53,703 nt of DNA from Candidatus Magasanikbacteria bacterium RIFOXYC2_FULL_42_28 (GCA_001784435.1 MFQZ01000004.1:1-53703), one strand, 5' to 3'; counted from the stretch's first letter, positions 11,742-36,854 are shown. Notes: generated from the sequence alone by a model not told the origin. Numbers and translations are program-made.

Positions 11742-11744
11742 ATA

Positions 11745-20938: not shown

Positions 20939-23900
20939 ATGCCAGATAGACATGTCCAACAAAGCACGCCCGAAGCGTGGCACAATTTCGATGCTAGTAA
21001 TTTTGCGGTTGGCGATTATGTCACTTATTTTGATCCGGCCGACGAGCGGTGGCATTTTGCTCAATTAGATGCGAATCCACGCCATAATACTCGCAATAAA
21101 ACAGTGGAATTGTATTTGAACGATGAAAACGGCGCCCCCCTCCCTGATTTAGAGTCGCCCTTGCCACCAAAGAGGATTCATCTACAAGAAGGCGGAGTAA
21201 TAATTAGGGGGCAAAGGTATGAGGTAGATCGAAATTTGCCTTATAACGATATTGTAGTTGACGAAAATGGTAACGCCTATGCCACTTTATGGCCGGTTGA
21301 TGCCACCGGCAATACCATCCCTGATTTGGATGAATTACCTAACATGAATTTAAGCATGTTGGAAAAAGTTCAGCGCACCAGCCGTGATGAGGCCGAAGCG
21401 GATACTCGCGTCGCCACTATTCATGAATTGCAGAATCGTACGAACGATGTCGCCACTGTTAAACGCAAAGAATTTGTCAAACGGTTAAATGATCTGGAAA
21501 AAACCATTGAAGATTTAATTAACAAATTGGGATCTTGGAACGAGTGGAACGACCGCGATGATCGGGAGATTAATGCTGTTAAACAAGAGGCCGCCCAGAT
21601 CTATAAGAAAGTCGACGCGGATTTGGAGAAACTGCGCCGTGATTTGGATGCTGTTTTATCTAAACAAGCCGAGGCCGGTAATGAGGCAATTACCGAAGGA
21701 CGCCGAAAAGTCGCAGTTGATTTGGACGGGGCTGTTTCAAAGAGCGCGAGTAAGATTGCCAAGGCGTGGGAAAAATACGATAAAGAGGTGGCCGACTCCA
21801 AGAAAATTTGGGATCAATACGATAAAGACAAAAAAGCGTTTGATGATGCCGCCGCGGCTCCGGCTCCGGCCGCGGGGGGCAAACCACCCCGACCGGCCGC
21901 TCCTAAGAAAGAACCGACGATTCCTACTGTTCCCCGAGAGTCCGTTATCACACCGCCCACGGAACCACGCGATAAAAATTTTATTGCTGCCGGCAGTTAT
22001 AACAGTTTAGCAACTCATAGGCCTCCGCTTAGCGCCGAACACGCCGAGATAATTCGTTTGGTGACTGAGCGGTTTGCGGCTTGGGAGAACGGGGTAGACG
22101 GTACACCTTCTCCCGAAGATCGGACGGAAAAAACCGGTGAGATATTTTTGGCGGTATTAGAAGAGATGAAAAACGCGCCCAAAGTGGAAGCCGAGCCGTT
22201 TGATTTTGCCAAAGAAAAAGAAGAATTGGAAACAGAGGCCAAAGCCCTTTGGGACCGCGCTAGCGACGGCGGCTACGAGCCGGTAATGGATTTAATCAGA
22301 AATAGTCGAGAGGACATTCATAATCTGAAAAAGAAAGATAAAAATGCCCAAAGAAACATGGCGGAAATTTGGAAAAAATTGGGTAATATTGAAATTACTT
22401 TATTTAAAAAAGAGAGAAAAGATAAAACACCGAATGAAAAAGTCAAAGAACGGGATATCGACATCCCCGATACTTTGGTTGGAGAAATTATCCAATCGCG
22501 TCCGCAGGAATTGTTCAATTTAATGTTGGATATGTATCGGAATGAGTATTCGGAAACAGGCTATACTTCCAAAGGTTTGCCAATGGAGGATATTGTTGCT
22601 GATCGTTTGAAAAATTTATTCGCCGCTCCGCCTGCCGGTCCAGCCGGTCAAAGAATTTTGGCAGATTTAGCTCGACACGGTATTCGCGATTGGAATCATT
22701 TTACCTTGCTGTGGGAGCAGAAATACGCTTTGCGCGCTTCCAAAGTATTGCACGAAACTGTTCGTGCCGATATCAACAATGATACTGCTCGCCATATTAG
22801 CGGTTGGGACAAAGCGCGAGCGATGTTACCGCAACTTGCCAAAAGAATTGTCACCACAGCCGTATTAGTTGGCGGTTGTGCCTTGGGCGCTTCGGTGCTG
22901 GTCCCAGCTGGCGCGACTGCTTTAGTTGCCGGGGCAGCAGTTGTTGGTGGTGGTACTGTCGGTGGCGCTGTTCGCGGTGTTTTACAAAAATTTTGGTTTG
23001 GCAGAAAAGTCCAAGAAGATCGAGACAAAAAAACCATGGAGGACTTGACCAACCGCACGCGCGACCAGCGCATTCAAATGTATTTGGCGCAACGGTTCAA
23101 TTTTAATCCCGCTGATTTTGATATTAATAGGAGTTTTAACGGCGGAACAGTTAATGCTGTCACCGGTTTAAACAATGCTGCCGATACGGTTGCGGAACTT
23201 TCCGCTTTGATTGCCGAGGCCACGCGGGTGGCCGGAAAAGAGGCGATTGAGATTGATGATGCCGACCGTCCGCCGGCCGGAATTGTCCTTACCGGCGATG
23301 CTTTGCGAACCTATGTTCGCGCTTTGGCCGCTTGGCGCGCGCGTGAACACGGCCGAGAAATTTTACCGGAAGAAAAGAAAAAATTAGCCGAGACAATAAT
23401 TGGTATAGTAGAGGGTAAAAATGAATTGGCGGAAGGCGACAAAGCCGCAGCCACCGGTTTGACCGGTGAGGGATTGGAAATGTATATCAATGTTTTGAAA
23501 AAAATTCGTCGTGAAGGTGATAGTCCCAATGAAAAACAGAAAAAAGCGTGCGCTTTGGCAATCGCGCGTTTAACGCAAGGCGCCGAAGTAACACAGGTTT
23601 TGGCTGCTGCCGGATCTGACCCAATCGTTATTCGGTTGTTTGATGGCATTGCCCAAGGATTTAGCGGTCAATCAGCGAAAAAATATGGTTGGAAAGGGGT
23701 CGCCGGAACAGCTGCTTTGGGTGGTGGTATGGCCGGAGCGTTTTTACTAAACAGTGGTGCCGCCCGGGCGGTGATGGGCGCGATTGGTGGAGGCGCGAGC
23801 GGTTATCATATGGGTGAGGGTATTCGCAAAGGGCGTGAATATCGAGATGGGCGAACGCGGTTTGATGTTGTGTTTACACAAACACGAACTTTGCAGGATA

Positions 23901-26269
23901 GATTCAATGTGAATCCGGCTACTCTTACCGCGGACGAATTAAATGATTTGGCGGATGACGTTCGCCTGCTGAATCGTTGGCTAAAAAATAATGCCGATAC
24001 GATTGAAGATTCGCGCGCGGTGGATTATATCAATCAGAATCCGGTTACTCGCAAACAATTGGAAAATTTGGTTTACGAGGCCTACAATCGCGGTGTGTTT
24101 GCCCGTTTGGCCTTGGAAAAACTCAACAATTTTACCAATTCACAAGTTTTGGGTAGTTTGGAGAGTGATAATTTGGGTGTAAAAGCCGATGGCAATATTA
24201 GTCAACCGGACAAAGATCGCGAACGACGCCGAATTTTACTTTGGCGTATTGGTTCAACGGCAGTGGGCGCTTTAGCTGGCGCCGGTTTGGCTTGGGGGGC
24301 CGGTGAATTGTTTAGTCGCGCTAAAAATGCCGGCGCGGATGCTTTGCGTGAAAAATTTGGCATTGGCGCGGTGGCGGCCGGAGCGACTGTCCCCGGCAGT
24401 GGCGCTGGCGGGGCGGAACATGTGCCGGGTGGCCGTAGTGGCCACGGTGCTGAAGTAATTAGTCCCGACCCGGCCACAAGTGGTGGCACCGAACATTTAC
24501 CAACCGGCGAAAGACCGCCGGCGATCGCGCATTATGAATTACACGACACCCGGCTCCCGGGAGCTCCCAAATACGAAGGCATGTGGCGCGCGATTGAAAG
24601 TTTCAAGGGCGATTCTCATTTTAAGGGAATGTCCAATCATGATTATACCGATTGGCTTAAAACCGAAATGGAACGGATGGGTTATAAATTTTTAGACGGT
24701 ACCCACAAAATCGCGCACCCGTTTGATGAAAATCCCGGCGATAGGGTAGAATTATTTGTTGATGGTGAAGGTAATCCACACGTGCGCTTTTTGAATGCCG
24801 ATGGTTCGGATAAAGTGGCAATGGACCATTATAATATTGAGACGCGAGTGGGTGGAAAACCAGTGGTGGGAGCGGAAATAGAAACAAAGTTTGCCGGCTT
24901 TAATAAATTGGCGCATGAATTTGCGGACCAATGGAACAAGCCGGGTGCCGATCATGATAATTTAATAAAGAATTTTCCAATTGCTGATTTGGACTCTATT
25001 AAATCCATCAATGTTTACGGAGAGCGCGGAAGTGTAGTGGTTGAATTTACTGACAATACACAGGGGCTTTATCATCCGGTAAAAGCACTGACTGGAAATG
25101 GGTGGATTTTGCAGTCTGGCCGTGAAAATTTACAAGATGTTTTTGAGCAGGGAGTATATGATTACAATTCAAGCAAGTTGCACCCAATAGAAAATGGCGG
25201 TGTGAGATACTATGAATTGCCGGGGAAAGTTATGACTAACGGGAATAGGGCTGGTCAAGATTTTTCGATGTTATATGATATTGGTGGCAATCCAGTTGGT
25301 TATAAATTAGATGGTCTAGTAACAATTGGTCCATATCATTCAGCGATAATGGAAGGCAATAGATGGCCGGTCGGCACACCAGCGCATATTGATGTTCGCG
25401 GTGAAGGATTCAAATGGTTAACAGGCGACGCTATTAATTCAACCGACCAAGCCAGAATTTCCGCCGCGGCCGGCGGGTATGATGTCGTGCCACGATATAC
25501 CGGTGGTGGGGGAGGGACGGGGTTAAGGCCGGAGGCGGGGGCGAGCGGTGGCGGTGTGCCAATAGAAACACATCCACCGGCCAATGATGCCGTGTTGCCG
25601 CCAGAGGCGAGGGGTGCTGTCGCTGGCGCGGCCGTGAGCGAAGCCGATGTTTTTCAAGATTCTTTGCGCCCTGGTAAGGGGGCAACTGCCCAGTCGGCTT
25701 CGGCCGAACAGGTATTGTCGCCATCTGCTGTTGATGTCAGTGTTTCGCGCGGTTGGTATGGTGGTCGTGTTCTTGAGTTGTTTACTAAAGAGTTTAATTC
25801 TGTATCGTCCGAAGCGAACAATCATATCGGCAGTGCGGTAGATTCGTATAATAGACAACTATTGGCCGATGTGAAGGTGCATCCGGAAAATCACCAGCAA
25901 TTTATCTTGGCTAATAAGACCGACAATGAACAAGCGATGCTACAGGCCTATGTCAGTGATCCTTATTTTAGAGCAAATTTTCCAGATGAGTTAAAATTAG
26001 CGTTTGATTATGGCGGTACGGGTATTGAGGAAGCTAAAGTCGTAGGTGGTGATACCGCCAAGGTAATTGGTAATGGGTGTAGCGCATTTACCGCTTCTGT
26101 TGGCGACAGCGGTAAGAAATACTTTCATTATGACCCAGATTATACCTATGCTCGTGCTGTCAGCGGGGATTTAGTCGCCACTAAAGATGGTAACACTTTT
26201 TTGGTAGAATTCAATGGGCTTAATGACGACGGTACCCCCAAAGTTGATTACCAACCATTTAGCAGTTAA
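20939..26269 (+). CDS. Giant 1776-aa protein with coiled-coil, Pro/Ala linker and three Gly/Ala-rich hydrophobic segments
   Basis: Uninterrupted ORF. Hydrophobic GxxxG-rich stretches (IVTTAVLVGG..., GVAGTAALGGG..., IGSTAVGALAGAG...). Confidence 0.9.
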   Translation: MPDRHVQQSTPEAWHNFDASNFAVGDYVTYFDPADERWHFAQLDANPRHNTRNKTVELYLNDENGAPLPDLESPLPPKRIHLQEGGVIIRGQRYEVDRNLPYNDIVVDENGNAYATLWPVDATGNTIPDLDELPNMNLSMLEKVQRTSRDEAEADTRVATIHELQNRTNDVATVKRKEFVKRLNDLEKTIEDLINKLGSWNEWNDRDDREINAVKQEAAQIYKKVDADLEKLRRDLDAVLSKQAEAGNEAITEGRRKVAVDLDGAVSKSASKIAKAWEKYDKEVADSKKIWDQYDKDKKAFDDAAAAPAPAAGGKPPRPAAPKKEPTIPTVPRESVITPPTEPRDKNFIAAGSYNSLATHRPPLSAEHAEIIRLVTERFAAWENGVDGTPSPEDRTEKTGEIFLAVLEEMKNAPKVEAEPFDFAKEKEELETEAKALWDRASDGGYEPVMDLIRNSREDIHNLKKKDKNAQRNMAEIWKKLGNIEITLFKKERKDKTPNEKVKERDIDIPDTLVGEIIQSRPQELFNLMLDMYRNEYSETGYTSKGLPMEDIVADRLKNLFAAPPAGPAGQRILADLARHGIRDWNHFTLLWEQKYALRASKVLHETVRADINNDTARHISGWDKARAMLPQLAKRIVTTAVLVGGCALGASVLVPAGATALVAGAAVVGGGTVGGAVRGVLQKFWFGRKVQEDRDKKTMEDLTNRTRDQRIQMYLAQRFNFNPADFDINRSFNGGTVNAVTGLNNAADTVAELSALIAEATRVAGKEAIEIDDADRPPAGIVLTGDALRTYVRALAAWRAREHGREILPEEKKKLAETIIGIVEGKNELAEGDKAAATGLTGEGLEMYINVLKKIRREGDSPNEKQKKACALAIARLTQGAEVTQVLAAAGSDPIVIRLFDGIAQGFSGQSAKKYGWKGVAGTAALGGGMAGAFLLNSGAARAVMGAIGGGASGYHMGEGIRKGREYRDGRTRFDVVFTQTRTLQDRFNVNPATLTADELNDLADDVRLLNRWLKNNADTIEDSRAVDYINQNPVTRKQLENLVYEAYNRGVFARLALEKLNNFTNSQVLGSLESDNLGVKADGNISQPDKDRERRRILLWRIGSTAVGALAGAGLAWGAGELFSRAKNAGADALREKFGIGAVAAGATVPGSGAGGAEHVPGGRSGHGAEVISPDPATSGGTEHLPTGERPPAIAHYELHDTRLPGAPKYEGMWRAIESFKGDSHFKGMSNHDYTDWLKTEMERMGYKFLDGTHKIAHPFDENPGDRVELFVDGEGNPHVRFLNADGSDKVAMDHYNIETRVGGKPVVGAEIETKFAGFNKLAHEFADQWNKPGADHDNLIKNFPIADLDSIKSINVYGERGSVVVEFTDNTQGLYHPVKALTGNGWILQSGRENLQDVFEQGVYDYNSSKLHPIENGGVRYYELPGKVMTNGNRAGQDFSMLYDIGGNPVGYKLDGLVTIGPYHSAIMEGNRWPVGTPAHIDVRGEGFKWLTGDAINSTDQARISAAAGGYDVVPRYTGGGGGTGLRPEAGASGGGVPIETHPPANDAVLPPEARGAVAGAAVSEADVFQDSLRPGKGATAQSASAEQVLSPSAVDVSVSRGWYGGRVLELFTKEFNSVSSEANNHIGSAVDSYNRQLLADVKVHPENHQQFILANKTDNEQAMLQAYVSDPYFRANFPDELKLAFDYGGTGIEEAKVVGGDTAKVIGNGCSAFTASVGDSGKKYFHYDPDYTYARAVSGDLVATKDGNTFLVEFNGLNDDGTPKVDYQPFSS

Positions 26270-26296
26270 ATTTAGTAGTTAAAATTCTATTAAGAT

Positions 26297-26323
26297 AAAA
26301 TAGGCCTCAAAAAGGCCTATTTT
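26297..26323 (+). terminator. Intrinsic terminator
   Basis: aaaataggcct-caaaa-aggcctatttt. Confidence 0.85.
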
Positions 26324-26392
26324 ATTATGCCAAATTTTGGCTAAAATTAGCATAAATTCAATCAAATTGGGGATAAAATTAGGGTAGGGGGC

Positions 26393-26421
26393 TTGACAAG
26401 AAGCCAAAAGTGTGCTATAAT
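26393..26421 (+). promoter_or_regulatory. Perfect sigma70 promoter TTGACA-N17-TATAAT
   Basis: Exact consensus, with extended TG before the -10. Confidence 0.88.
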
Positions 26422-26426
26422 GACCA

Positions 26427-26622
26427 GTCGTGAAAATATAAAAAAGTTTACTTTTATATATTTGAGCGACGCAGGCATTTCAAGCTTTGCTTATAATGCT
26501 TGGTCAGGATATGAAAGGCGGATGCGTTTTGAGAGAGACGCGAATTCGCCCCAATACTGAAAACGACATACAATCTAAATAAATTGTAATAACCTCTCTC
26601 ATATTATATAGGGAGGTTTTTT
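26427..26622 (+). ncRNA. Candidate ~200-nt structured ncRNA of unknown family
   Basis: Lies between a perfect promoter and the terminator aacctctct..agggaggtttttt. Four hairpins by eye. No listed plus-strand ORF. Confidence 0.55.
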
Positions 26623-26972
26623 AATAAAGTATCGCTCTTTACAATATAAGTCACTCAAAAGCAATAGATTGCCGTCTGTTTTACTGGAATACTCAAGTAA
26701 AGCAAACGGCGATCTAATCCGAAGTTGATGATTTCTGATTCTTGGTTCGTCGGGCTCTTCGCAAGAAGAAACCGACATTAAAGGCCTTCTAGGTAGGCCA
26801 GTATAAAGAAACGCGGACAAACATCAGTTTGTTACGCACTTTATCAAACCTAAACCGTCTTACTCTGAATTTTAGAGCGACGGAAGGAACTGATGGAACC
26901 AAGATGAGGATTTCTGATACTGAAGAGGTGGTTGGAACCGTATGTTCGTAGGTGCGTTACATAGGAGGTCAC

Positions 26973-27488
26973 ATGACCCGCACCACTCAGGCCCTGCTCG
27001 GCGTGTTCGGTCTCGTCCTGGTCGGCGCCATCGCGTTCCTGTCCTTCACCCACACCTCCCGCACGGAGGTGGTGGAGGAGGTCCAGATCCTCCGCCAGGA
27101 GGTCCAGGACGCGAAGTACGCAAAGGCGGACGCCATGTCCGACGAGTTCAAGCTCGTCCGCCGGGAGTTCGCCGCGGCCGACGCCGCGCTCTCCGAGCGC
27201 CTGTCCGGTGTGGAGGGCGGCCTCAAGTCCGCGAACATCCGCATCCGGAAGGCCCGCGAGGAGGCCGGCAACGCGTTGGCCAGCGTCATCAACCTCGAGG
27301 GAGCCCTCGCCCGCAAGGCCGACGCCGAGGCGGTCGAGGACGCGCTCGCCGCCAAGGCCGACGTGGCCGCCCTCGCGACGAAGGCCGACAGCGAGGCCGT
27401 CGAGGCCAACTTCGCGCTCAAGGCCGACGTCGACGCGCTCGCCCGCCGCCTGGCCGGCATCGAGCCGCGCGTCAGCGCCCTCGAGTGA
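26973..27488 (+). CDS. Cassette 1: GC-rich membrane-anchored coiled-coil protein, 171 aa
   Basis: AGGAGG at 26963..26968. N-terminal TM, KAD repeats. Sample line 27121-27180 is 42/60 GC. Confidence 0.85.
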   Translation: MTRTTQALLGVFGLVLVGAIAFLSFTHTSRTEVVEEVQILRQEVQDAKYAKADAMSDEFKLVRREFAAADAALSERLSGVEGGLKSANIRIRKAREEAGNALASVINLEGALARKADAEAVEDALAAKADVAALATKADSEAVEANFALKADVDALARRLAGIEPRVSALE

Positions 27489-27492
27489 TCGA

Positions 27493-27728
27493 AGCCCCAC
27501 ACCATGTGTGGGCAAGCCCCCGCGTCGGGGCAGTGCGCGCAATGTGCACGAAACGACGCCGCGGCAATCCGCCACACGGATCCTTTACCTGGATCACAGC
27601 GGACCGCGCAGTAGGGGGAGGAGAGAATGAGACTATCGAGAGTTTCGGCAAAACTCCTCTCCCTTCCCCTACATCTGTTCATTAAATTGTTAGTGCGCAG
27701 ATGAAGTGGAAGTATTTGTTCTTTAAAA
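27493..27728 (+). ncRNA. Cassette 1 structured 3' element ending in boxA-like tgttctttaaaa
   Basis: Several short hairpins, long stem 27611..27672, last hairpin 27673..27702, purine linker, motif at 27717..27728. Confidence 0.55.
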
Positions 27729-27765
27729 TTTAAGGAGGCGTGTATTCGCCTCTATTTATTTTTAA

Positions 27766-27852
27766 CTGTCATCCCGAGCGTAGCCGAGGGATCCCTTAGA
27801 GTTGGTGTTGTTATCAACTTTAATAAATCCTTTGTTGCGCCCGGAATGACAG
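27766..27852. repeat. TGTCAT-family palindromic element between cassettes 1 and 2
   Basis: ctgtcatcccgagcgtagccgagggatc ... ccggaatgacag. Same family as 15812, 39272, 48722. Confidence 0.8.
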
Positions 27853-27939
27853 TGCAGTTTTTGCTGTTTTCCTTGTTCGTGCTCGCAACCCACCCGATAA
27901 TCGGGGCCCGACAGCGTCGGGTTTTTTGGAGGAAGTCTC

Positions 27940-28578
27940 ATGACTCGTGCACAGTTCTGGTCGTTTTTGGTGGCGGTGGTGGTCGTGGGCATCGTGGCAG
28001 TGCTGGGGTTCGGTCTCGGCTTCACCAAGGCCGACGAGGACGAGGTGGTCGCCGCCCTGGCGACCAAGGCGGAGGCCACCCGCATGGCGGCCGAGTTCGT
28101 CGCCGTGCGGGGAGAGTTCGCCGCGGGTGACGCCACTCTCGCTGCTCGCCTCACCGGCGTGGAGGGGCGGGTCTCCACCGTGGAGTCCCGCCTCACCGGC
28201 GTGGAGGGTGGCCTGAAGGCGGCCACTCGGCGGCTCTCCGAGCTGCCGCAGAAGGCCGATCTCGACGCCCTCGCCGCCCGTCTCGGTTCGGCCGAGGGTA
28301 CGCTCGCCTCGGCCCCCTGGTCGACTGGCCTGGCCACCTTGGCCGGTCGGGTCGCGACCCTCGAGACGCCCGCGCCCCCGATCGTCGCCCCCGTGTCGCC
28401 CACCTGCACTGGCTGGTCCCTCGGCGTCCGCGGCGCGCCCATCTCCCCGGTGGGTTGCTACGCGACCTGCGTTGCGGCGAAAGCTGTGGCGCAGGGTGGT
28501 AGCCGGTTCAGCGGCTCGGTCTACGGGCGGACATCCGCCCAGTGGATTGAGTCGAGCGAATCCTGCCCGGCCGAGTAG
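27940..28578 (+). CDS. Cassette 2: GC-rich paralog of cassette 1 with a Cys-containing C-terminal domain, 212 aa
   Basis: GGAGG SD. N-terminal TM. EFxxVRxEFAAxDAxLxxRLxGVEGGLK shared with cassette 1. Internal 42-bp duplication. Confidence 0.85.
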
Positions 28579-28587
28579 TTCTTTCAC

Positions 28588-28798
28588 ACCCCACCGCACG
28601 ATCTCCCGATCGTAGCGGTTGGCGGCACACAGCGCGTCTTTCCTGTAAGCGCTGGATCGGTCAGACGGTTTGTCTCCCCGTGAGACGAGTCGGCTTCCGT
28701 TGGAAAGGGTCCCGAGTTTGTTGGCAACAACACTCTCGGGCACTCTGGCATGTTGATTTGTTAATCAAGTCAACAGTTAGAGTAGGTGTTCTTTACAA
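28588..28798 (+). ncRNA. Cassette 2 structured 3' element (173 bp shared with cassette 3)
   Basis: 28588..28760 matches 29602..29774 with 2 mismatches, then gtcaacagttaga and tgttctttacaa. Confidence 0.7.
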
Positions 28799-28933
28799 AA
28801 AATTAAATTTTCCGGCGTGAACTTTTCATTGTTTAGAAAAATAATGAAGAGCTCACGCCGGATCCGATCGAGGCATATTGTGGACGATCCACAATGTTGC
28901 TTTAGTTGGGATTATCTGGTAGAGGAGGTTCCT

Positions 28934-29596
28934 ATGGGGCGCAAACCCCCGACCTCGGCGCGCGTCATCGCGACGTTCGCCATCCTCTGCGCCACGGCCT
29001 CCCCGGCCGCGGCGCAATCTGAAACCGGTGACGCGGCGCCCGCCGCTGTCACCCCTGATCCGGCCGAGTTGCCGGTGCCCCCAACCTCACCCGACCCGGG
29101 TGGCTGGAAGTTGGTGCTCGCCCCCGAGTTCAGCGTCGGGGTGGCGCACTCGGAGGCCGGCTTCGACGCCGACTCCGAGGATGCCTACCTCGGCACCGTC
29201 TCGGCCACCTTGCTCCTGCGCCACTCGGCCCTGTCCGGTGGTGAGCCCTCATCTTTCCTGTATGGGCTTCGCGGCTTGTACGGGTTGGGTGGTGGCTCGT
29301 CGGGTGCACGCCAGTTGTGGGGCGTCGCTGGCCTTCTGGGTTGGCGCGCGTCTCGCGACCGCGTCGTCGGGGGCATTGGTCTGTCCTACATCCAGTATGA
29401 CAAGGCAGGCGGGGATTGGGTCCGCCGCGGTGGCGGCGTTCCGCTCTGGATCGAGATCAAATTGGGGGATAGCACCTCCAATTGGTTCCTCGGTCTGGAA
29501 GGGACGCCCGCCATCCTCTGGCGGGACCTGGACGATGCCCCTGCGTTCGCCTTCGGGCTGAACGCGGGGGTGCTCTACCACATCCCCCTCTACTAG
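28934..29596 (+). CDS. Cassette 3: GC-rich secreted protein resembling a small outer-membrane beta-barrel, 220 aa
   Basis: AGGAGG at 28923..28928. Signal peptide (ASPAAA-Q), Pro-rich linker, Gly/aromatic-rich amphipathic strands, C-terminal GLNAGVLYHIPLY. Confidence 0.75.
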   Translation: MGRKPPTSARVIATFAILCATASPAAAQSETGDAAPAAVTPDPAELPVPPTSPDPGGWKLVLAPEFSVGVAHSEAGFDADSEDAYLGTVSATLLLRHSALSGGEPSSFLYGLRGLYGLGGGSSGARQLWGVAGLLGWRASRDRVVGGIGLSYIQYDKAGGDWVRRGGGVPLWIEIKLGDSTSNWFLGLEGTPAILWRDLDDAPAFAFGLNAGVLYHIPLY

Positions 29597-29601
29597 TCTT
29601 T

Positions 29602-29817
29602 ACCCCACCGCACGATCTCCCGATCGTAGCGGTTGGCGGCACACAGCGCGCCTTTCCTGTAAGCGCTGGATCGGTCAGACGGTTTGTCTCCCCGTGAGAC
29701 GAGTCGGCTTCCGATGGAAAGGGTCCCGAGTTTGTTGGCAACAACACTCTCGGGCACTCTGGCATGTTGATTTGACATACGAAGCATCGAGTCAACAGTT
29801 AGATTGGTTCTTTAAAA
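29602..29817 (+). ncRNA. Cassette 3 structured 3' element (near-identical to cassette 2 element)
   Basis: 173-bp direct repeat, different loop in the final hairpin, ggttctttaaaa at 29806..29817. Confidence 0.7.
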
Positions 29818-29979
29818 TTTAGAAAAATAAATTAAAATATAAATGATACTGCGCGCGACTGGCGCGGAAAGAGAAATTATTATTTGATTTTTCTTTCTGC
29901 GTCAGTTTGTAGTTCGGTGCTCCGAGGATGGTCCTCGTAGGTGCCGGCGCAGCAAATCGCATAGCAAGGAGAAAAAACT

Positions 29980-31530
29980 ATGCGTACCACCAACATCGCG
30001 GTGGTTCTCTGTCTCGGACTCTGGACCGCTTCGTGCGGCACCAAGGCCGAGGCCCCCGGGCTCGACGTGCCCGCGGACGACGATAACACGGCGGATGACG
30101 ACACCGCCGACAACGACGACCTCGTCGTTTGCCTCGAGTGCAACGACGATGACCCGTGCACCACGGACTGGTGCCGGGTGTCACCCCCCCCTGGGGTCGA
30201 CTCGTGTGTCCACATGAACGGGGACGCCGGCGTCACCTGCGACGACGGCAACGGTTGCACCGAGACCGACGTGTGCGACGGGGTGGGCACCTGCGTTGGC
30301 ACGCCCCTGGCGTGCGACGACGGCGATGCCTGCACCGACGACGCGTGCACCGACGGCGTGTGCAACAACACGTCCGTCACCTGCGACGACGGCGATGCGT
30401 GTACCGCGGAGTTCTGCGGGACCATCGCCGGCGGTACCGGTGGGTGCTTCTCGGTTCCCGTGGCTGGCGAAGGCTGCGAGGAGGAGTCCAACTGTACCGT
30501 CGCCAGCGATGGCGTCGGGAATTTCTCCCTGACCTGCCCGGACGGCTCCGTGGCAGAGTGGGGTGACGGCGCGGATGGCGCGCCGGGAATGGACGGAGCC
30601 GATGGGGTCGATGGGACCCCGGGTACCGACGGCGTCGATGGCAGCGACGGCACGGACGGAACCGATGGCGCGCCGGGAGCTGACGGGCTCGACGGTGCGG
30701 ACGGGGCGGATGGCGCCCCGGGTGATTCGTGCAGCGTGACTGTGCTTCCGATGGGGTGCATGGTCATTGTGTGCGGGGATGACGATCCTTCCCCGCCCCT
30801 GTGCCCGGACGTGTCCGAGGCCGGATGCACCACCACGCAGGACGGCGACTGTGCTGTCATCAACTGTGTGGGTGGATCTACGTCGCGGGTGTGCCCCACC
30901 ACGACGGCTCCTGCCTGTGTCACCGACGGCGACTGCGCCGACGGCAATGCCTGCAACGGCCACGAATCGTGTGTGGCCGGGGAGTGTGTGAATGGGGTCG
31001 TGGTGTCGTGTCTGGCCGCGGACGCGTGCCATCTCGTCGGTGAGTGTGATCCGGCGAATGGCCTGTGCTCCTCGCCTTCCGCCCCGACGGGGACGGTGTG
31101 CGACGACGGCAACGCCGGCACCACCGGCGACCAGTGCGACGGCGCTGGCCTGTGTGTGGGGGTGGCCACGCCCCCCAGCCCCGATGCCGATGGCGACGGG
31201 TACAGCATCGCGGCCGGCGATTGCGACGATGACCCCACCGTGGGTCCGTCGCCGGCCCGATGGTGCCGGGGGAGCGACACGAAGAAGTTCCTCGTGATCG
31301 ACTTCCTCGGAAGTGTGGCCCCGGCCTGCCCAGCCGGAAGTGTCGAAGTCGCGCTGACCGACGGGTCCGCGCTCAACAACCCCGGTATCCACGATACCAC
31401 CGGGGATGGCTTCGACAACAACTGCAACGGCATCATCGACGAGGGCGGCGGGGACCAGTGCACCTGGTCGCACATGTCGTCCGGTCCCGCGCTGGACTAT
31501 CTCGTTCGATGCCCGTGGATGAACCCGTAG
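29980..31530 (+). CDS. Cassette 4: GC-rich Cys-rich lipoprotein with CDDGxACT repeats, collagen-like Gly-X-Y tract and metal-binding-type motif, 516 aa
   Basis: AAGGAG SD, lipobox WTASC, repeated CDDGNxCT, GADGAPGMDG... tract, DADGDGY..GDCDD and DGFDNNCNGIIDEG. Confidence 0.88.
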   Translation: MRTTNIAVVLCLGLWTASCGTKAEAPGLDVPADDDNTADDDTADNDDLVVCLECNDDDPCTTDWCRVSPPPGVDSCVHMNGDAGVTCDDGNGCTETDVCDGVGTCVGTPLACDDGDACTDDACTDGVCNNTSVTCDDGDACTAEFCGTIAGGTGGCFSVPVAGEGCEEESNCTVASDGVGNFSLTCPDGSVAEWGDGADGAPGMDGADGVDGTPGTDGVDGSDGTDGTDGAPGADGLDGADGADGAPGDSCSVTVLPMGCMVIVCGDDDPSPPLCPDVSEAGCTTTQDGDCAVINCVGGSTSRVCPTTTAPACVTDGDCADGNACNGHESCVAGECVNGVVVSCLAADACHLVGECDPANGLCSSPSAPTGTVCDDGNAGTTGDQCDGAGLCVGVATPPSPDADGDGYSIAAGDCDDDPTVGPSPARWCRGSDTKKFLVIDFLGSVAPACPAGSVEVALTDGSALNNPGIHDTTGDGFDNNCNGIIDEGGGDQCTWSHMSSGPALDYLVRCPWMNP

Positions 31531-31790
31531 CGGGTATCCAACGCAGTGAGCTGGTGAACATAACACCGGCAATATAGCAAAAAAATGTCGGGAGATACCG
31601 TAATTCTCCTAGTCCGCCCAGTAAAGGAGGGGTGGAAATGAAACGGAACACAATGCGTCCGTGGCGCGCAAGCGTCTGGATGTTTGACAGCAGGCGTCGG
31701 TGGGGAGGTCTCATACTTCCCTGCCGACGCCCGCCCGATTGAGAACATAAAGATTTGTGTTTTCAAACAGGGTGAAGCGATTTAAAGTTT
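31531..31790 (+). ncRNA. Cassette 4 structured 3' element
   Basis: Short hairpins, long stem 31693..31731, last hairpin 31739..31766, purine linker, degenerate gcgatttaaa. Confidence 0.5.
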
Positions 31791-31962
31791 GAAGATATAG
31801 TTTTACATATTAACGTCTCGGTTCGAAAATGCAAAAACTTCGTTTTTTCATTTTGCTCACCTTCGAGACGCTAATAAAAATACCACCAAGTTCGTCTCTC
31901 TCATCCTATGTTTTTTTAGACAAAGGAAGAAGAACTCGGTGGTATTTTTGTTTTATTTATAC

Positions 31963-32316
31963 CTATGCGACCTGCAATTGTTTTACTTGTCTTTCTAAAA
32001 AGTCCACTCGTTTGCGTAACTCCAGAATATCTTTGGCCGCGGCATCTTCATCGCCAATAATGCGTTGTTCCAATTGATCCAACTGGCGATTAATTAATTT
32101 TAACTCAGAGTGAATATACGCAAGCGCGCTGGCCATTTCAGATTTAAATTCCGACAGTTCGCCTTTGACTGACTTTATTTCCGCGCTTAGTTCTCCTTTC
32201 AATTCATCAAACCGCCTGTCCACGCTTTTAGCGAATAATTCCATTGCCTCTAAAATTTCGTTATTACTCACCTCTTTTTTGGCTGTCATATTGTTTGACA
32301 TTAATTTTTTAAGCAA
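31963..32316 (-). CDS. Small coiled-coil hypothetical protein (start uncertain, 32316/32301/32289)
   Basis: Heptad-repeat character. AT-rich, genome-like codon usage. Confidence 0.75.
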   Translation of the reverse strand: MLKKLMSNNMTAKKEVSNNEILEAMELFAKSVDRRFDELKGELSAEIKSVKGELSEFKSEMASALAYIHSELKLINRQLDQLEQRIIGDEDAAAKDILELRKRVDFLERQVKQLQVA

Positions 32317-32392
32317 ATTTATTATATCATTGTTTTAAAATAATTGTCAAACGCAATGGATTTTTTAATAGTAATATGGTAAAATATATCTT

Positions 32393-33778
32393 ATGATTGC
32401 ACAAACAATTAGTACCAGATCAACCAGATTAAAATTTTTGGTCGTGATTTTAGCGACTGTTTTGGCTTTTGGCGCCACTATTTTTTACGGCACTTTTGGC
32501 GCGGTTTTGGCCGGAGTGGTTTTTTTGATTTGGTTTTTTTCCAGCCGTTTGACGATTGGTTGGTATATTTTGGTGGCGTTGTCACCCTTTATCGGCTGGC
32601 AAATTTATTTGGAACATTATTTTCGCGGGTCGCCGTTTTTTGCCGGTTGGAACGCGCCACCGGTGGAGTTTTGGGCGATTTTAATGTTGCTGGCTTTTGC
32701 TTTAGATTATGTTCGTCAATTGTTTGACGGCGCACAACCGCGCTTGATTTTTCCTCGGGCTAAATATTTTTTGTTGTTTGGCGCGAGCGCTTTTCTGTCG
32801 CTCATTAACATCCCGGCGTCCGAACGCTTGGCTGGTGTTAAATTTATTGCGCACTTTTTTTTATTTACTTATTTTGCCTATGTTTTTTTGGGAGCCAATA
32901 TTGTCAAATCAAAAATTGTTTGGGAAAACAGTTTAAAAATTTTAGTGGGCGTTGGTATTTTCGGCGCGGCGACGGGGGCGTGGTCGTTGTTTATCGGCGC
33001 TTGGAATGTGGGCGGATTAGAGCGCGCAGTGCCATTGCCCATTGGCGGAATTTGGCCATTGGGCGACCAGCATATTTTACTCGCGGAATTTTTGCTCATT
33101 GCTTTAATATCTGCTTGGTATTTTTACTTAACTCGCAAAACATTTTTGACCGGTTTGTTGACGTTATTTATTGGCGTTGTCGGCCTGCTGACCTGGTCGC
33201 GTTCTTTTTGGTTGGCGATTATTATTACCGGCGCGGTGGTGGGATTTCAATATCGCGCTAAAATTAATTGGGCGGGGATAGCGCAAAAATTTTTGCCGCT
33301 TTTGATTATTTTATTATTCGTGGTCGGTTACTGGTTTTATTTTATGTATTCGGCTGATATGGTAATTGGCAGTTCTAATAGCGCGCGCGCGTCTGGCGCC
33401 GAATTCGCCTGGGAGTTGGCGCGGACTTATCCGTTAATCGGGGCGGGAGTGGGTAGTTTTGTGCCACGCTTAAGCGAAATATATTATTATCGGATTGATT
33501 TTGGTGACGCCGTGGACGCGCTGGGCTGGCCACAGAAAATTTTGGCTGAACAGGGATTTTTAGGTTTTGGCATATTCGTCGGTCTTATCGCCAGCGTTTT
33601 ATATTCTTTGCGGAGCGCGTTTTTGGCAACTGGTAGTCGTGCCAATCGTATTATTTATTTTTCGGCCTTCTGTCTATTTTTGGCACCGTTAATTTTTGAA
33701 ATGTTTACCACTAATTATTACAGCGCGCGCTTGTGGGTACCATTGGCTTTGGCGCTCGCGGTTATCGATGATCTATGA
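32393..33778 (+). CDS. O-antigen ligase / Wzy-like membrane protein
   Basis: Multi-TM. LTWSRSFW, YPLIGAGVGSF, ILAEQGFLG resemble the Wzy_C layout. Confidence 0.8.
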   Translation: MIAQTISTRSTRLKFLVVILATVLAFGATIFYGTFGAVLAGVVFLIWFFSSRLTIGWYILVALSPFIGWQIYLEHYFRGSPFFAGWNAPPVEFWAILMLLAFALDYVRQLFDGAQPRLIFPRAKYFLLFGASAFLSLINIPASERLAGVKFIAHFFLFTYFAYVFLGANIVKSKIVWENSLKILVGVGIFGAATGAWSLFIGAWNVGGLERAVPLPIGGIWPLGDQHILLAEFLLIALISAWYFYLTRKTFLTGLLTLFIGVVGLLTWSRSFWLAIIITGAVVGFQYRAKINWAGIAQKFLPLLIILLFVVGYWFYFMYSADMVIGSSNSARASGAEFAWELARTYPLIGAGVGSFVPRLSEIYYYRIDFGDAVDALGWPQKILAEQGFLGFGIFVGLIASVLYSLRSAFLATGSRANRIIYFSAFCLFLAPLIFEMFTTNYYSARLWVPLALALAVIDDL

Positions 33779-34863
33779 AAATAAAAATTTTACAAATTAT
33801 TCCATGTTTTGCGCGAGGCGGAGCCGAAACCATGGCGTTAAATTATGCCAAATTTTTGGATAAAAATAAATTTGAAGTGATTACCGCGAGTTGTGTTGAA
33901 GGTGGGGAATTGGAAAAAGATTTCGCGACTGCCGGCGCGCCTGTTTGGGTTGGCTCCAGACGAAAAATGTTCGGTCGATTAGGTGTTTGGTATGCTTTGG
34001 CCAAATTTACCAAAGAGCAACGGCCTGATATTTTGCATACGCATTTATTTGGGGCGGATTTGGTCGCGTGGATTTTGAAAAAAGTTTTCAGAATTAAATT
34101 TTATTGGGTAGTTACTGTCCACAATCGTGAGCGCGGATTTGGTTGGTGGCGGATGCATGTTTGGAAAATGATTTTACGGTCGGCTGATAAAATAATTGCG
34201 GTTTCAGCCGCGACCGGCGAGTATGTTCACGAATATTTAGACGTTTCCGCTCATAAGATGACGGTGATAAATAATGGCATTGATTTGAGCCCTTGGTTAA
34301 ATGTACCGGCTGTTTCCGAGAGTAGCGTTACGTTGCGTTTGGCGGTGGTTGGGCGTTTGACTAAACAAAAAGGACAGGAATTTTTATGGCGCGCTTTGGC
34401 AAATTTGAAACATCCTTGGCAGTTGGGGGTGTTTGGCACTGGTGAAGATGAAAAAAAATTAAATCAACTGGCGCAAAAATTAAACATTGCTGATAAAATC
34501 ATCTGGCACGGTTTGATAGTCGATTGGTCTCGTGAATTAGCCGATGTTAATGTGGTGGTGGCACCAGCGCTCTGGGAAGGATTGAGTTTGGTGGTAATGG
34601 AATCAATGACCGCCGGCAAGGCGGTAGTCGCAAGTTTGGAAGCCGGCCAGGGCTTAATTGAAAATAATATTACCGGTTTGCTGGTACGGCCCGGATCGGT
34701 TGGGGATTTGTTCGGCGCGCTTGAATCATTGTCGGTTGATCACAAAAAAATTAAATTGCTTGGTAACAACGCTCGCGCTTATGCTAAAAAATATTTTGAT
34801 ATTAAACAAAATACGTTGGCAGTAGAAAAAGTTTATTGGCAAATTTTAAGTGGACAGAAATGA
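33775..34863 (+). CDS. GT4 family glycosyltransferase
   Basis: GGAE, PDILHTHLF, VINNGID, VGRLTKQKG, EGLSLVVMESMTAG. Confidence 0.92.
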   Translation: MKIKILQIIPCFARGGAETMALNYAKFLDKNKFEVITASCVEGGELEKDFATAGAPVWVGSRRKMFGRLGVWYALAKFTKEQRPDILHTHLFGADLVAWILKKVFRIKFYWVVTVHNRERGFGWWRMHVWKMILRSADKIIAVSAATGEYVHEYLDVSAHKMTVINNGIDLSPWLNVPAVSESSVTLRLAVVGRLTKQKGQEFLWRALANLKHPWQLGVFGTGEDEKKLNQLAQKLNIADKIIWHGLIVDWSRELADVNVVVAPALWEGLSLVVMESMTAGKAVVASLEAGQGLIENNITGLLVRPGSVGDLFGALESLSVDHKKIKLLGNNARAYAKKYFDIKQNTLAVEKVYWQILSGQK

Positions 34864-36854
34864 GACACTCAAATAATTTTAAATTTTATCGTTTAATCAC
34901 GGCCGTTTTTACCGGTTTATTTTTGTTGGTTTTTGGGTTTTGGCATTTGACCGCGCAATCAGCGCCACTTCTCGCCAATTATTATCTACCCTGGCAAATT
35001 CCGGCGAGCGAAGTGGCCAATTTGGCCAAGTATGATTTATTGGTGTTAGATATGGAAACGCAGGTGACCAGTCGGGCGCAAATTGAAAAAATAAAGAGTT
35101 TGAATCCGGATATAATTTTGTTGGCCTATGTAACTTCGGAAGAAATCAGCGCAAGCGCGGCTACGTCCGGAAGCAGTTTACGGCGAAAATTACGCGCCGG
35201 CATCGCGCCCGAATGGTTTTTAAAAAAGTCCGATGGCAGTAGTTTAAGTTTTTGGCCAGGCACAGTGATGTTAAATCCTTCCGATAGTTGTCCGATTGTT
35301 AATGGCTGGAAATGGAATAGTTATTTGGCGAATTTTATGACGCGAGAGGTTTTGGCGACCGGTTTATGGAGTGGGGTTTTTTATGATAATTCGTTTGACA
35401 GTATCACTTGGTTTTCCGGATCAGGGATTGATTTGAATTTGGATAAGATAAATGACATTGATCCGAATAATTCTTGGCGTGTCGGTATGCGTCAGTTATT
35501 TGCGTCCACCTACGCGACTGGTAAAAATTATTTAGTGGTTGGTAACGCGTTTGTTGACACCTATCGCCACGACAATAACGGGGTTATGATTGAAAATTTT
35601 CAGAATTTACCGTGGCAGGACGTTTTGCGAGTTTATCGCAGTCAATTAAGCGGTCAACCGCAACCGCGGGTGGTAATACTAAACGGCAATACCGGCAATA
35701 CGGGCGCGCGCGCGGACTATCGCAATGTGCGTTATGGTTTGACGACGGCGCTCATCGGCGGTGATGGCTATTTTGCTTTTGATTATGGCGATAAAGATCA
35801 CGGTCAGACCTGGTGGTATGACGAGTATGATGTTAATTTGGGCGCGCCTTTGGGCAAAGAAGTGCAAAATGGGGGAACGTATCGCCGTGATTTTGAGAGT
35901 GGCGTGGCTTTAATTAATCCGACCGAACAGACACAGACAATTGATTTGGGCGGAGAATATGAAAAAATTATTGGCACGCAAGACAAGGCGGTCAACAGTG
36001 GCGGAATTGTGAGTAAATTAAATTTGCCGAGTAAGGATGGCATTATTTTGCGCAAAACATTTCAAGATGTCAGCAATGTCTTTTTTTTAAACGGTGGCTT
36101 GGCGCGGTTTTTTACGCCTGAAGGCAAACGAGCGCGCAATGGTTTTTTTGCGTTCACGCTGGGATTTGCCGGTGGCGATATGATTTACAAGGGGGATTTA
36201 GACGGACAGACCGGTTATGAAAAAATTGCCGGCGAAAACCAAATTTTTTATGTGTTAGATAGCACCGGTAAAATTTGGCAAGACAGTTGGCCGTTTTTTA
36301 ACAGCGGTAATCCGGCGGCGACGCCCGCTAATTTAAATTTAAGCGTGGGCGAATTGGAAAAAGGTAAAGGCAAAAAAATTGTTTTGTCCGGCAGTAGCGG
36401 GGGCGCGGTTTTAATTACCACTTATTATGGCGCGCCAATTTATGAAAAAAAATATCCGCTGGGCGGAAAATATAACAAAGGTTTTAGCACGGCGGTGGGC
36501 GATACCGATGGTGGCGACGGCGAAATTATTTTGGGAACCGGCGCGGGCGTGGCAGGCGAAGTTTTGATAATGGATGCGAGCGCGTCCAAAATTAAAAAAA
36601 GATTTTATCCGTATGGTTCCGGTTTTAAAGGTGGCGTGTTTGTGGGGGCGGGTGATATTAATGGCGACGGTCGCGCGGAAGTTTTGACCGTGGCCAAAGT
36701 AAACGACAAAATATTAGTAAAAACATTTTCCGGCGTCGGCAAACAATTAAAAGAATTTTCCGCTGGCACCGCTTTGGGCTCCAATCGTTTTAGTGTGGGC
36801 GTGACTGATGTTGATGGCGACGGTAAGGTGGAGATCGTGGTGGGGAGTAATTAA
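34836..36854 (+). CDS. Secreted putative glycoside hydrolase (TIM-barrel, GHL15-like) with C-terminal FG-GAP-type repeats (start may be 34859)
   Basis: LAKYDLLVLD, WSGVFYDN, GVMIE, WWYDEY, YRRDFESGVALINP; GDINGDGRAEV and DVDGDGKVEIV repeats. Confidence 0.75.
   Translation: MANFKWTEMRHSNNFKFYRLITAVFTGLFLLVFGFWHLTAQSAPLLANYYLPWQIPASEVANLAKYDLLVLDMETQVTSRAQIEKIKSLNPDIILLAYVTSEEISASAATSGSSLRRKLRAGIAPEWFLKKSDGSSLSFWPGTVMLNPSDSCPIVNGWKWNSYLANFMTREVLATGLWSGVFYDNSFDSITWFSGSGIDLNLDKINDIDPNNSWRVGMRQLFASTYATGKNYLVVGNAFVDTYRHDNNGVMIENFQNLPWQDVLRVYRSQLSGQPQPRVVILNGNTGNTGARADYRNVRYGLTTALIGGDGYFAFDYGDKDHGQTWWYDEYDVNLGAPLGKEVQNGGTYRRDFESGVALINPTEQTQTIDLGGEYEKIIGTQDKAVNSGGIVSKLNLPSKDGIILRKTFQDVSNVFFLNGGLARFFTPEGKRARNGFFAFTLGFAGGDMIYKGDLDGQTGYEKIAGENQIFYVLDSTGKIWQDSWPFFNSGNPAATPANLNLSVGELEKGKGKKIVLSGSSGGAVLITTYYGAPIYEKKYPLGGKYNKGFSTAVGDTDGGDGEIILGTGAGVAGEVLIMDASASKIKKRFYPYGSGFKGGVFVGAGDINGDGRAEVLTVAKVNDKILVKTFSGVGKQLKEFSAGTALGSNRFSVGVTDVDGDGKVEIVVGSN

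Follow-up and report, generated by a model that had tools for sequence, protein, structure and literature searches.

Four GC-rich genes that form a co-oriented array in Candidatus Magasanikbacteria bacterium RIFOXYC2_FULL_42_28 are each preceded by a 12-nt boxA-like motif, GYTCTTTAMAAW, which lies 4–38 nt upstream of a long hairpin or hairpin group (Table 1). boxA is the loading site for NusB and ribosomal protein S10 in rRNA operons and in phage lambda nut sites. The window, i.e., the whole 53.7-kb stretch of DNA that was analysed (GCA_001784435.1 MFQZ01000004.1:1-53703), contains four copies of the motif, one per gene and all on the + strand, compared with 0.13 expected, and none of 100 shuffled sequences reaches four. 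Motif, long hairpin and GC-rich gene are found together at two further places in the genome and in at least eight related Magasanikbacteria-like genomes. The motif was missed in an earlier note, which described the hairpins as recombination or RNase processing sites, and its match to boxA changes how the hairpins are read: they are probably sense-RNA leader elements tied to the motif rather than recombination sites. The whole package would be a nut-like RNA module of boxA and stem-loop ahead of each cistron, a reading for and against which the sequence evidence is evenly balanced.

Table 1. Features in and around the array, with positions counted from the first nucleotide of the window
Feature	Position	Strand	Remarks
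Sigma-70 promoter, canonical (TTGACA, 17 nt, TATAAT; 12/12)	26393..26421	+	Conserved in G013 and G019
Structured leader RNA ending in an intrinsic terminator (about 26592–26622)	26428..26625	+	Fold z −5.5; three-genome alignment
boxA-like motif 1, GCTCTTTACAAT	26634..26645	+	Same position in G013
Hairpin 0, long stem-loop before gene 1	26665..26716	+	RNA z −6.9
Small 11-bp stem-loop within the long 5′ UTR of gene 1	26855..26883	+	DNA z −1.5; RNA z −4.2
Gene 1, 171 aa, N-terminal membrane anchor and coiled-coil repeats	26973..27488	+	GC3 0.97
boxA-like motif 2, GTTCTTTAAAAT	27718..27729	+	Perfect match to GYTCTTTAANA
Small terminator-like hairpin with T-rich tail, directly after motif 2	27734..27753	+
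Hairpin 2, long imperfect palindrome; left arm a copy of a 37-nt REP-like repeat	27765..27853	+	DNA z −4.3; RNA z −8.8
Gene 2, 212 aa, with membrane anchor and coiled coil; Cys in the C-terminus	27940..28578	+	GC3 0.86
Structured element in the 3′ UTR, first copy of a direct repeat of 173 nt (99% identity)	28588..28760	+	Fold z −6.1
boxA-like motif 3, GTTCTTTACAAA	28788..28799	+
Hairpin 3, 23 pairs, unique sequence	28811..28862	+	DNA z −5.4; RNA z −6.9
Gene 3, 220 aa, signal peptide, predicted all-beta, orphan	28934..29596	+	GC3 0.82
3′ UTR element, copy 2 of the 173-nt repeat	29602..29774	+
boxA-like motif 4, GTTCTTTAAAAT	29807..29818	+
Hairpin 4, about 21–23 pairs	29857..29907	+	DNA z −4.4; RNA z −7.6
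Gene 4, 516-aa lipoprotein, Cys-rich repeats and collagen-like stretch	29980..31530	+	GC3 0.82
Hairpin 5, after the array	31814..31870	+	DNA z −3.8; RNA z −5.1
Long hairpin with A/T flanks, between the array and a convergent gene (31963–32316)	31873..31952	.	DNA z −5.8

The canonical promoter at the head of the array probably drives all four genes. In the three-genome alignment of the leader RNA, the sequence GAGAGAG at about 26531 is invariant and the terminator arm reads CTCTCTC; pairing between the two is possible and would make the leader an attenuator. An intrinsic terminator is located just upstream of boxA at the array heads of G000, G013 and G019 (G013 and G019 belong to two other genera) and also at locus L057, and boxA therefore cannot act on that terminator. 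Genes 1 and 2 are paralogs (34% identity). Searches with gene 3 among 5.8 billion proteins and among 1.84 billion representative proteins returned only the query itself, and the structure model built from a three-sequence alignment is of low confidence (mean pLDDT 44.8), which is too low for a fold search. The A/T-flanked hairpin downstream of hairpin 5 looks like a bidirectional terminator.

The array genes have GC3 values of 0.8–0.97 in the 42% GC genome of a small CPR bacterium. The alternation of AT-rich and GC-rich DNA described in the earlier note is genuine. In the probable source run, single contigs (22621–27791 and 29745–36000) span the AT–GC junctions, and 100%-identical pieces are present at low depth in three other runs, one of them across 26709–27019. 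An assembly or binning artefact might be suspected from the breaks of the source-run contigs at the repeats 27769–27791 and 28588–28760, and from the lower contig depth for genes 2 and 3 (12–18 vs 24–27), but the intact junctions, the identical pieces and the same architecture in several other genomes leave it a negligible probability.

Two of the four motif copies match exactly the consensus GYTCTTTAANA, given in the available text of PMC5725501 as the NusB/S10 loading site, and the other two deviate at one position. The available text of PMC13753749 gives boxA as UGCUCUUUAACA in E. coli and as AUGAUCUUUGAAA in B. subtilis. In the rRNA leaders of the host, GTTCGTTGACAAT comes after a hairpin (16S) and ACTTTGACAAT is present in the 23S leader; an element of this kind also stands behind a conserved hairpin in the 16S leaders of 10 relatives, two of which have the spacing of the cassette motif. 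The rRNA boxA candidates of the lineage mostly contain one extra G (TTTGACAAT), so that the cassette motif is similar to them, not identical. NusB is encoded (C8:13957-14346; 118.9 bits vs a cut-off of 23.1), directly upstream of RNase III (C8:14464-14856).

Loci L049, L054 and L058 have a full TTGACA...TATAnT promoter 8–30 nt upstream of the motif, a −10 element is seen upstream of it at L036 and L044, and in the window the consensus promoter lies about 240 nt upstream. These promoters indicate that the motif is transcribed; judged by promoter consensus, it is part of RNA downstream of a promoter. The 97% complete genome yielded no match to Rho_RNA_bind, and matches to the rho model were ATP-synthase-like only. 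As Rho was not found, the classical anti-Rho role cannot apply, and an anti-Rho function of the motif was dropped. Overall, the evidence leans slightly toward a working Nus-loading boxA.

The motif alone is not enriched in relatives: 41 genomes contain 36 exact matches, compared with 34 for a reversed control, and specificity arises only when motif, hairpin and GC-rich gene are taken together. Thirty of the 36 matches were folded. Where downstream GC is at least 0.54 (16 of the 30), 12 fold to −36 kcal/mol or below within 110 nt, whereas only one of the 14 with lower downstream GC does so; GC-rich sequence within the 110-nt window inflates these energies. Behind the 20 modules examined, 19 ORFs were found, all with GC3 of 0.60–0.97. 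G013 and G019 both have three genes in matching order, each with the motif in front; the motif is followed by a long hairpin in every G013 module, and one of the three G019 modules is without such a hairpin. In G032, from another family, a promoter and long hairpin precede GC-rich genes without a clear boxA. In a comparison aimed at an empty site, neither of the genes flanking the array was found in the same-genus genome G001, where one contig ends 55 nt past a motif copy, and a search for further islands via the 461-aa neighbour gene gave no locus in the genome contigs searched.

Of the five hairpins listed in the earlier note, hairpins 2, 3 and 4 are strong (none of 200 shuffles folds as well) and hairpin 5 is moderate, real but imperfect, whereas the structure at 26855–26883 is minor, with 16 of 200 shuffles folding equally well as DNA. 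The true counterpart of the others before gene 1 is hairpin 0, which was absent from that list. The hairpins do differ in sequence, as had been stated, except that the left arm of hairpin 2 (27762–27798) belongs to a repeat with 13 further copies elsewhere in the genome and many in relatives, and that hairpin 4 has one 85% paralog (C2:110108-110159), which follows the same motif and precedes another GC-rich lipoprotein gene. Of these hairpins, only hairpin 2 is multi-copy. The description of GC-rich ends and an AT-rich core holds as a tendency only: mean GC over 17 modules is 0.51 in the outer eight pairs and 0.40 in the inner pairs, and the outer value is higher in 13 of the 17. An Rfam search with the hairpins, the leader and the 3′ UTR repeat (gathering threshold, and E up to 5) found no family, the best matches to the hairpins being microRNA-type chance matches. 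Hairpin 5 was rejected as a member of the series; it has no boxA in front and no gene after it, which makes it a different kind of element, and in G023 a 78% relative is flanked by a tRNA gene and a tsaD-like gene.

The hairpins might be taken as ordinary intergenic palindromes (REP- or MITE-like, or terminators), with the motif serving as a weak −10 element (TAMAAT) of separate promoters. The 14-copy repeat in hairpin 2, a similar element in one G019 hairpin and the genome-wide frequency of long hairpins, about one per 10 kb (115 with at least 18/20 pairs in 1.15 Mb, six of them within 26.6–31.9 kb), are consistent with this reading, as are the lack of enrichment of the motif alone and a promoter score of 9/12 at 29811–29838. 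An intrinsic-terminator scan (8 sites in total vs 7.3 expected) passes hairpin 4 and the small hairpin after motif 2, but hairpins 0, 2, 3 and 5 fail, and most hairpins are without a T-tail. The motif is without a usable −35 element or TG extension and was given low weight as a promoter. Moreover, at least nine genomes have motif, hairpin and GC-rich gene together, invariably in this order and on a single strand, and the motif count in the window stands far above expectation. Ordinary palindromes are thus an improbable explanation.

The stems fold better as sense RNA because of G–U pairs, which would be mismatches in DNA: the sense folds contain 78 such pairs and the antisense folds 16. When each strand is optimised separately, 14 of 17 modules are more stable as sense RNA, with a mean advantage of 9.1 kcal/mol. 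Base composition explains about 45% of this gap, and z is better on sense in only 12 of the 17; with the composition effect removed, the sense advantage is about 5.9 kcal/mol (p = 0.011, which overstates significance because the modules include paralogs and orthologs).

This strand bias bears on the proposal that the hairpins are structure-specific ssDNA recombination sites comparable to integron attC sites, REP elements or IS200/IS605 ends, in which case the GC-rich genes would be mobile cassettes. The resemblance is that shape and position are kept over sequence, between cassette-like genes of foreign composition; in addition, the 173-nt repeat stands behind two unrelated genes, and one recombinase reaches 245 bits on the integron-integrase model. 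That score falls short of the model's cut-off (265); with the XerA model the protein is above the cut-off (243.7 vs 220), and its gene is on another contig. The search of the whole genome found two tyrosine recombinases, both Xer-like, on C10 and C5 and none on this 53.8-kb contig, and the only recombinase in the window is a large serine recombinase at 51759–53363. PF01797 (Y1/HUH transposase) had no match in the 97% complete genome. Within 26.2–32.4 kb no RYYYAAC...GTTRRRY (R″/R′) core pair surrounds any hairpin; GTTRRRY occurs at 26265, 29284 and 29798, and RYYYAAC at 30486, 31371, 31536 and 32077. Cassette order is not shuffled between relatives: G000, G013 and G019 agree in the order of gene types, with weak similarities (E 9e-4, 0.033 and 1e-6). 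The hairpins stand upstream of genes and behind a transcribed motif, and their stems depend on sense-strand G–U pairs. The recombination reading is already largely refuted, and its remaining probability is very small.

In the mechanism proposed here, a co-oriented surface-protein operon of 65–70% GC would begin with a single strong promoter and a leader resembling an attenuator, and each cistron would have a two-part leader, a single-stranded 12-nt boxA-like motif followed by a sense-RNA stem-loop. NusB and ribosomal protein S10 would load at the motif onto RNA polymerase, re-arming it ahead of every GC-rich and highly structured gene and thereby keeping it from pausing or stopping at hairpins. 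The long stem-loop would define and protect the 5′ end of each cistron, either through cleavage by RNase Y or RNase III or by blocking the 5′ exonuclease RNase J. A role of the stem-loops in processing or 5′ protection is a possibility somewhat short of even. RNase Y and RNase J are encoded in addition to RNase III, RNase E/G was not found in the genome, and the stems span 20–38 pairs, in the range of RNase III substrates (at least about 20 bp of dsRNA). Release of monocistronic RNAs by processing at the hairpins, the other option of the earlier note, thus appears viable. An rRNA-like leader–trailer helix is unsupported by RNAduplex for six cassettes (z −1.8 to +2.3), a method that performs poorly on long inputs.

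Intercistronic RNase III sites are known from the early region of phage T7, and 5′ stem-loop stabilisers from Firmicute mRNAs. The long stem-loops here likewise stand between cistrons of one transcript, in a host with a Firmicute-type set of RNases III, Y and J; unlike T7 sites, they are nearly perfect and are without the typical internal loops, and their cleavage is only predicted. Hairpin-guided cleavage by RNase Y and 5′ stem-loop protection are also known in Firmicutes. The motif itself could then be a single-stranded target of an endoribonuclease such as RNase Y, the hairpin guiding the cut, and the module would only split a polycistronic RNA into stable monocistronic units, the purest version of the processing option in the earlier note. 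The enzymes encoded, the G032 hairpins without clear boxA and the position of the motif as the sole AU-rich unpaired stretch between structured GC-rich UTRs that flank each gene would suit this explanation. Nevertheless, it is unlikely: the motif is conserved nearly letter for letter across genera and equals the boxA consensus, whereas the sequence preference of these nucleases is loose, and at single-gene loci it lies 8–30 nt from the promoter, with no upstream cistron to separate.

A boxA-based module can be compared with several known systems. It resembles rRNA antitermination signals (boxB hairpin, boxA and boxC, with boxA repeated in the 16S–23S spacer) in the class of the motif, two copies of which match GYTCTTTAANA exactly, in being transcribed and repeated in one operon, in its tie to hairpins and GC-rich structured RNA, and in the presence of NusB; it differs in that it stands before protein-coding genes, once per cistron, with the long hairpin after boxA instead of before it, no boxC recognised and no detectable Rho. 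In lambda, N protein binds boxB, a short hairpin whose sequence is fixed. The order of boxA, short spacer and stem-loop, ahead of terminator-like hairpins, is that of lambda nut sites, but stems of 20–38 pairs with unrelated sequences do not correspond to a lambda-type boxB and make a sequence-specific N-like partner unlikely. Nus factors act outside rRNA at boxA elements in the 5′ regions of suhB and rpsJ (PMC5725501, PMC13753749), and boxA is also present upstream of gamma-proteobacterial CRISPR arrays (as cited in PMC13753749); such cases differ from the present one in having one boxA per unit, Rho-containing hosts and no obligatory long hairpin. The literature searched yielded no non-rRNA boxA case in Patescibacteria.

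A broader and more tentative proposal is that Magasanikbacteria-like CPR bacteria, apparently Rho-less, might use an expression adaptor modelled on the rRNA operon, i.e., first an attenuator leader and, for each cistron, a boxA with a long stem-loop, specifically for a long-lived island of surface-protein genes that are 65–70% GC, mostly orphans and located at one syntenic site in different genera, with the extreme GC3 being maintained and not a relic of recent transfer. The site might be a recurrent acquisition hotspot at which foreign GC-rich genes are then given the adaptor; alternatively, Nus-modified, rRNA-like transcription and RNA stability might select for GC-rich coding sequence.

Motif, hairpin and high-GC ORF together provide a simple search key for such islands in other CPR genomes, and in vitro tests of the parts (the 12-nt RNA, NusB–S10 and RNase III) would require no culture of the organism. 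The module also offers a testable approach to a puzzle, namely the expression and persistence of genes with such extreme GC3 against a background of 42% GC, at a position that is conserved between several genera. Should the motif prove to be a functional boxA, Nus antitermination would be used for protein-coding genes outside proteobacteria, in a CPR bacterium with a reduced genome and no detectable Rho, and the Nus machinery would be reloaded ahead of every cistron. This would bear on the role of Nus factors without Rho, which might lie in anti-pausing, in read-through of hairpins or in RNA folding.

The genome (1.15 Mb, 42% GC, 10 contigs, the window being contig C4) carries, between the gene for a giant protein and a cell-envelope glycosylation cluster, an array of four co-oriented ORFs (65–70% GC; GC3 0.82–0.97) separated by AT-rich spacers (see table); no other part of the genome is as GC-rich. 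The window also encodes SmpB, IF3, LigA and Mur ligases, as well as a tmRNA whose predicted tag peptide is unusually long (28 residues, including Cys-Gly-Ser-Cys); LigA is 57–73% identical to MAG proteins, mostly labelled Candidatus Magasanikbacteria or Patescibacteria. Genes 1 and 2 encode paralogous membrane-anchored coiled-coil proteins (34% identity), gene 3 a secreted orphan that has a signal peptide and is predicted to be all-beta (unreliable model, pLDDT 44.8), and gene 4 a lipoprotein rich in Cys that includes a collagen-like stretch. The gene 4 repeats share 30–55% identity with Cys-rich repeat proteins of Myxococcota-type organisms, a likeness that would be consistent with an old transfer; however, searches of 5.8 billion clustered proteins and 1.84 billion representatives gave no match to gene 3 (GC3 0.82) other than itself. 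DsbB-like and thioredoxin-like genes of the window could serve to make disulfides in the island's secreted, Cys-rich proteins. The 3' UTRs of two unrelated genes share a highly structured repeat (z −6.1; 99% identity), absent from the relatives searched, which suggests a recent duplication or gene conversion. Elsewhere, two adjacent LRR proteins have identical Pfam scores, pointing to a very recent tandem duplication.

Features of the window and their coordinates
Feature	Position	Strand	Remark
LRR protein genes	107–1105, 1156–2154		332 aa each
DsbB-like and thioredoxin-like genes	11223–12131	−	
tmRNA	16668–17071	−	
Giant protein gene	20939–26269		1776 aa; upstream neighbour of array
Promoter-leader element	26392–26498		promoter and first 80 nt of leader
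Promoter	26393–26421		
Operon leader	26393–26625		
boxA-like motif copies	26634, 27718, 28788, 29807	+	found by spacer alignment
Hairpin 0	26665–26716		before gene 1
Small hairpin	26855–26883		11 bp
Gene 1	26973–27488	+	
Terminator-like hairpin	27734–27753		directly behind boxA 2
REP-like repeat	27762–27798		37 nt
Hairpin 2	27765–27853		strong
Gene 2	27940–28578	+	
3' UTR repeat	28588–28760, 29602–29774		173 nt
Hairpin 3	28811–28862		strong
Gene 3	28934–29596	+	
Hairpin 4	29857–29907		strong
Gene 4	29980–31530	+	
Hairpin 5	31814–31870		3' of array
Serine recombinase region	51725–53363		adjoins tRNA-Glu at contig end

An assembly artefact as the source of the GC mosaic is ruled out, as contigs of the probable source run span the junctions. 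Three other runs also contain identical pieces at low depth, one of which spans 26709–27019. In run X1, contig depth within 27769–29631 is 12.3 and 17.8 (genes 2 and 3) versus 24–27 in the flanks, which could result from GC bias or from a subpopulation without both genes.

Three of the five hairpins listed in the earlier note, hairpins 2, 3 and 4, proved strong (DNA z −4.3 to −5.4; RNA z −6.9 to −8.8), with an equal fold in 0 of 200 shuffles. The other two held up less well: the first is small (DNA z −1.5), and hairpin 5 is weaker and isolated. The counterpart at gene 1 is instead hairpin 0 (RNA z −6.9), which that list lacked. Another genus has a sequence that resembles hairpin 5 at 78% over 75 nt (locus L012, genome G023); it immediately follows a tRNA gene and precedes a tsaD-like gene, suggesting that hairpin 5 is part of another conserved or mobile element. 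Hairpin 2 includes the REP-like repeat, of which the genome has 13 further copies; the repeat also occurs in many relatives, often as inverted pairs forming palindromes of ~100 nt (e.g., at locus L002), and a Y1 transposase able to mobilise it was not found.

Recombination sites of the attC or HUH type, as which the hairpins had been proposed, are a highly improbable explanation. None of the hairpins is bracketed by an attC core pair, and the search for an HUH nuclease in the genome found no Y1 HUH transposase. The two tyrosine recombinases of the genome are both encoded off this contig; of these, the better scorer is accepted by the XerA model and falls below the integron cut-off. The sole recombinase in the window lies 20 kb away; it is of the large serine type, with resolvase, recombinase and zinc-ribbon domains, and its region is possibly an integrated element. 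Gene order is conserved in relatives: the arrays of the related genomes G013 and G019 have the gene-type order of the window, at weak similarity (E 9e-4, 0.033 and 1e-6).

Each hairpin or hairpin group is preceded, at a distance of 4–38 nt, by a 12-nt motif, GYTCTTTAMAAW, which was absent from the earlier account. The window has four matches in total, each in the orientation of the genes, versus 0.13 expected. Compared with the published boxA consensus GYTCTTTAANA (PMC5725501), two copies are exact and two have one mismatch; boxA is given as UGCUCUUUAACA for E. coli and AUGAUCUUUGAAA for B. subtilis (PMC13753749), and boxA RNA is described as bound by NusB:NusE (PMC2800207). In the organism's own 16S leader, a hairpin is followed by GTTCGTTGACAAT, and the 23S leader contains ACTTTGACAAT; 10 relatives carry similar elements, mostly with an extra G, behind a conserved hairpin in their 16S leaders. 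Single-gene loci of related genomes (L049, L054 and L058) have a full consensus promoter 8–30 nt upstream of the motif, indicating that the motif belongs to the RNA rather than acting as a promoter. Several relative loci have a small hairpin between promoter and motif, as do rRNA leaders. The single paralog of hairpin 4, on contig C2, lies behind the same motif and before another GC-elevated Cys-rich lipoprotein gene, and contig C10 has a further motif and hairpin ahead of a gene with GC3 0.69.

The same layout is present 3' of the giant-protein homolog in G013, a member of another genus: a promoter, a leader with terminator, the motif, a hairpin and a GC-rich gene are followed by two further motif–hairpin–gene units. 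In G019, the motif precedes all three genes and a long hairpin follows it at two of them; both arrays are strongly diverged, with GC as high as in the present array, and GC3 of 0.8–0.97 is thereby retained across genera at a syntenic site. When 41 genomes were searched for the exact pattern, it matched 36 times versus 34 for the reversed control, indicating that the motif by itself is not enriched. Ordinary palindromes combined with weak promoters would be a clearly improbable account of the modules. Among the 30 of 36 matches covered by downstream analysis, downstream GC is at least 0.54 at 16, and a fold of −36 kcal/mol or lower occurs in the next 110 nt at 12 of these 16 versus 1 of the 14 others. 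Modules come from G000 (the genome of the window), G005, G008, G013, G017, G019, G022 and G039, with G014 as a weaker case. In another family, G031 has a promoter, a small hairpin, TTGTTTGACAAT, a long hairpin and a GC-rich gene; G032 has a promoter and long hairpin without a clear motif. In three families of the order (G027, G032 and G002), GC-rich islands (GC3 0.7–0.9) adjoin the homolog of a 461-aa neighbour gene.

The direction of the hairpins' strand bias is the one expected of a coding-strand RNA element. In 17 modules, whose hairpins were chosen on the sense strand, sense folds contain 78 G-U pairs versus 16 in antisense folds. With the strands optimised separately, sense gives the more stable fold in 14 of the 17, by a mean of 9.1 kcal/mol (Wilcoxon p = 0.0013), and composition explains 4.8 of the 10.7 kcal/mol sense–antisense difference in a shuffle control, the rest being significant (p = 0.011); as the modules are partly interrelated, these p-values are generous. 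By z-score, sense has the better fold in 12 of the 17 modules.

The operon leader is common to three genera (also L027 7815–7965 and L010 6880–7010) and comprises a promoter that is perfect, a GAGAGAG that is invariant and a terminator with CTCTCTC as its 5' arm. It has no matching Rfam family and is likely a terminator/antiterminator switch. The promoter-leader element, whose leader part has a 5' stem-loop and ATTTCAAG..GCTTATAA, is multi-copy in relatives at 71–83% identity (G001, 5 places; G009, 6 places; G003; G007), where it heads other genes, e.g., one at L006 that is glycosyltransferase-like; at L003, a tandem duplicate is followed by GTTCTTTAACAAT, a perfect boxA.

The genome encodes RNase III, RNase Y and the 5' exonuclease RNase J, and RNase E/G was not found in it. 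The main rival, in which the hairpins are processed and the Nus factors have no role, is rather unlikely. Rho was also not found in the genome, so that the textbook anti-Rho role is inapplicable. A literature search combining boxA or Nus factors with Patescibacteria or the candidate phyla radiation found no paper on the subject, the two co-mentions being water-microbiome papers as judged by title. The gene for RNase III directly follows nusB (C8:13957–14856); the module is proposed to use both of these activities, each of which has its place in rRNA maturation.

In the favoured reading, which combines boxA and hairpin, gating, Nus loading, read-through and 5' protection are all steps that we infer. 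A single transcript would most likely start at the array promoter and be gated by the conserved leader, in which the terminator's CTCTCTC arm would face competition from the invariant GAGAGAG. The boxA ahead of each cistron would load NusB–S10, enabling polymerase to pass the numerous stable hairpins in this GC-rich RNA, the terminator-like one among them, and the long stem-loop behind each boxA would set and shield the 5' end of each cistron.
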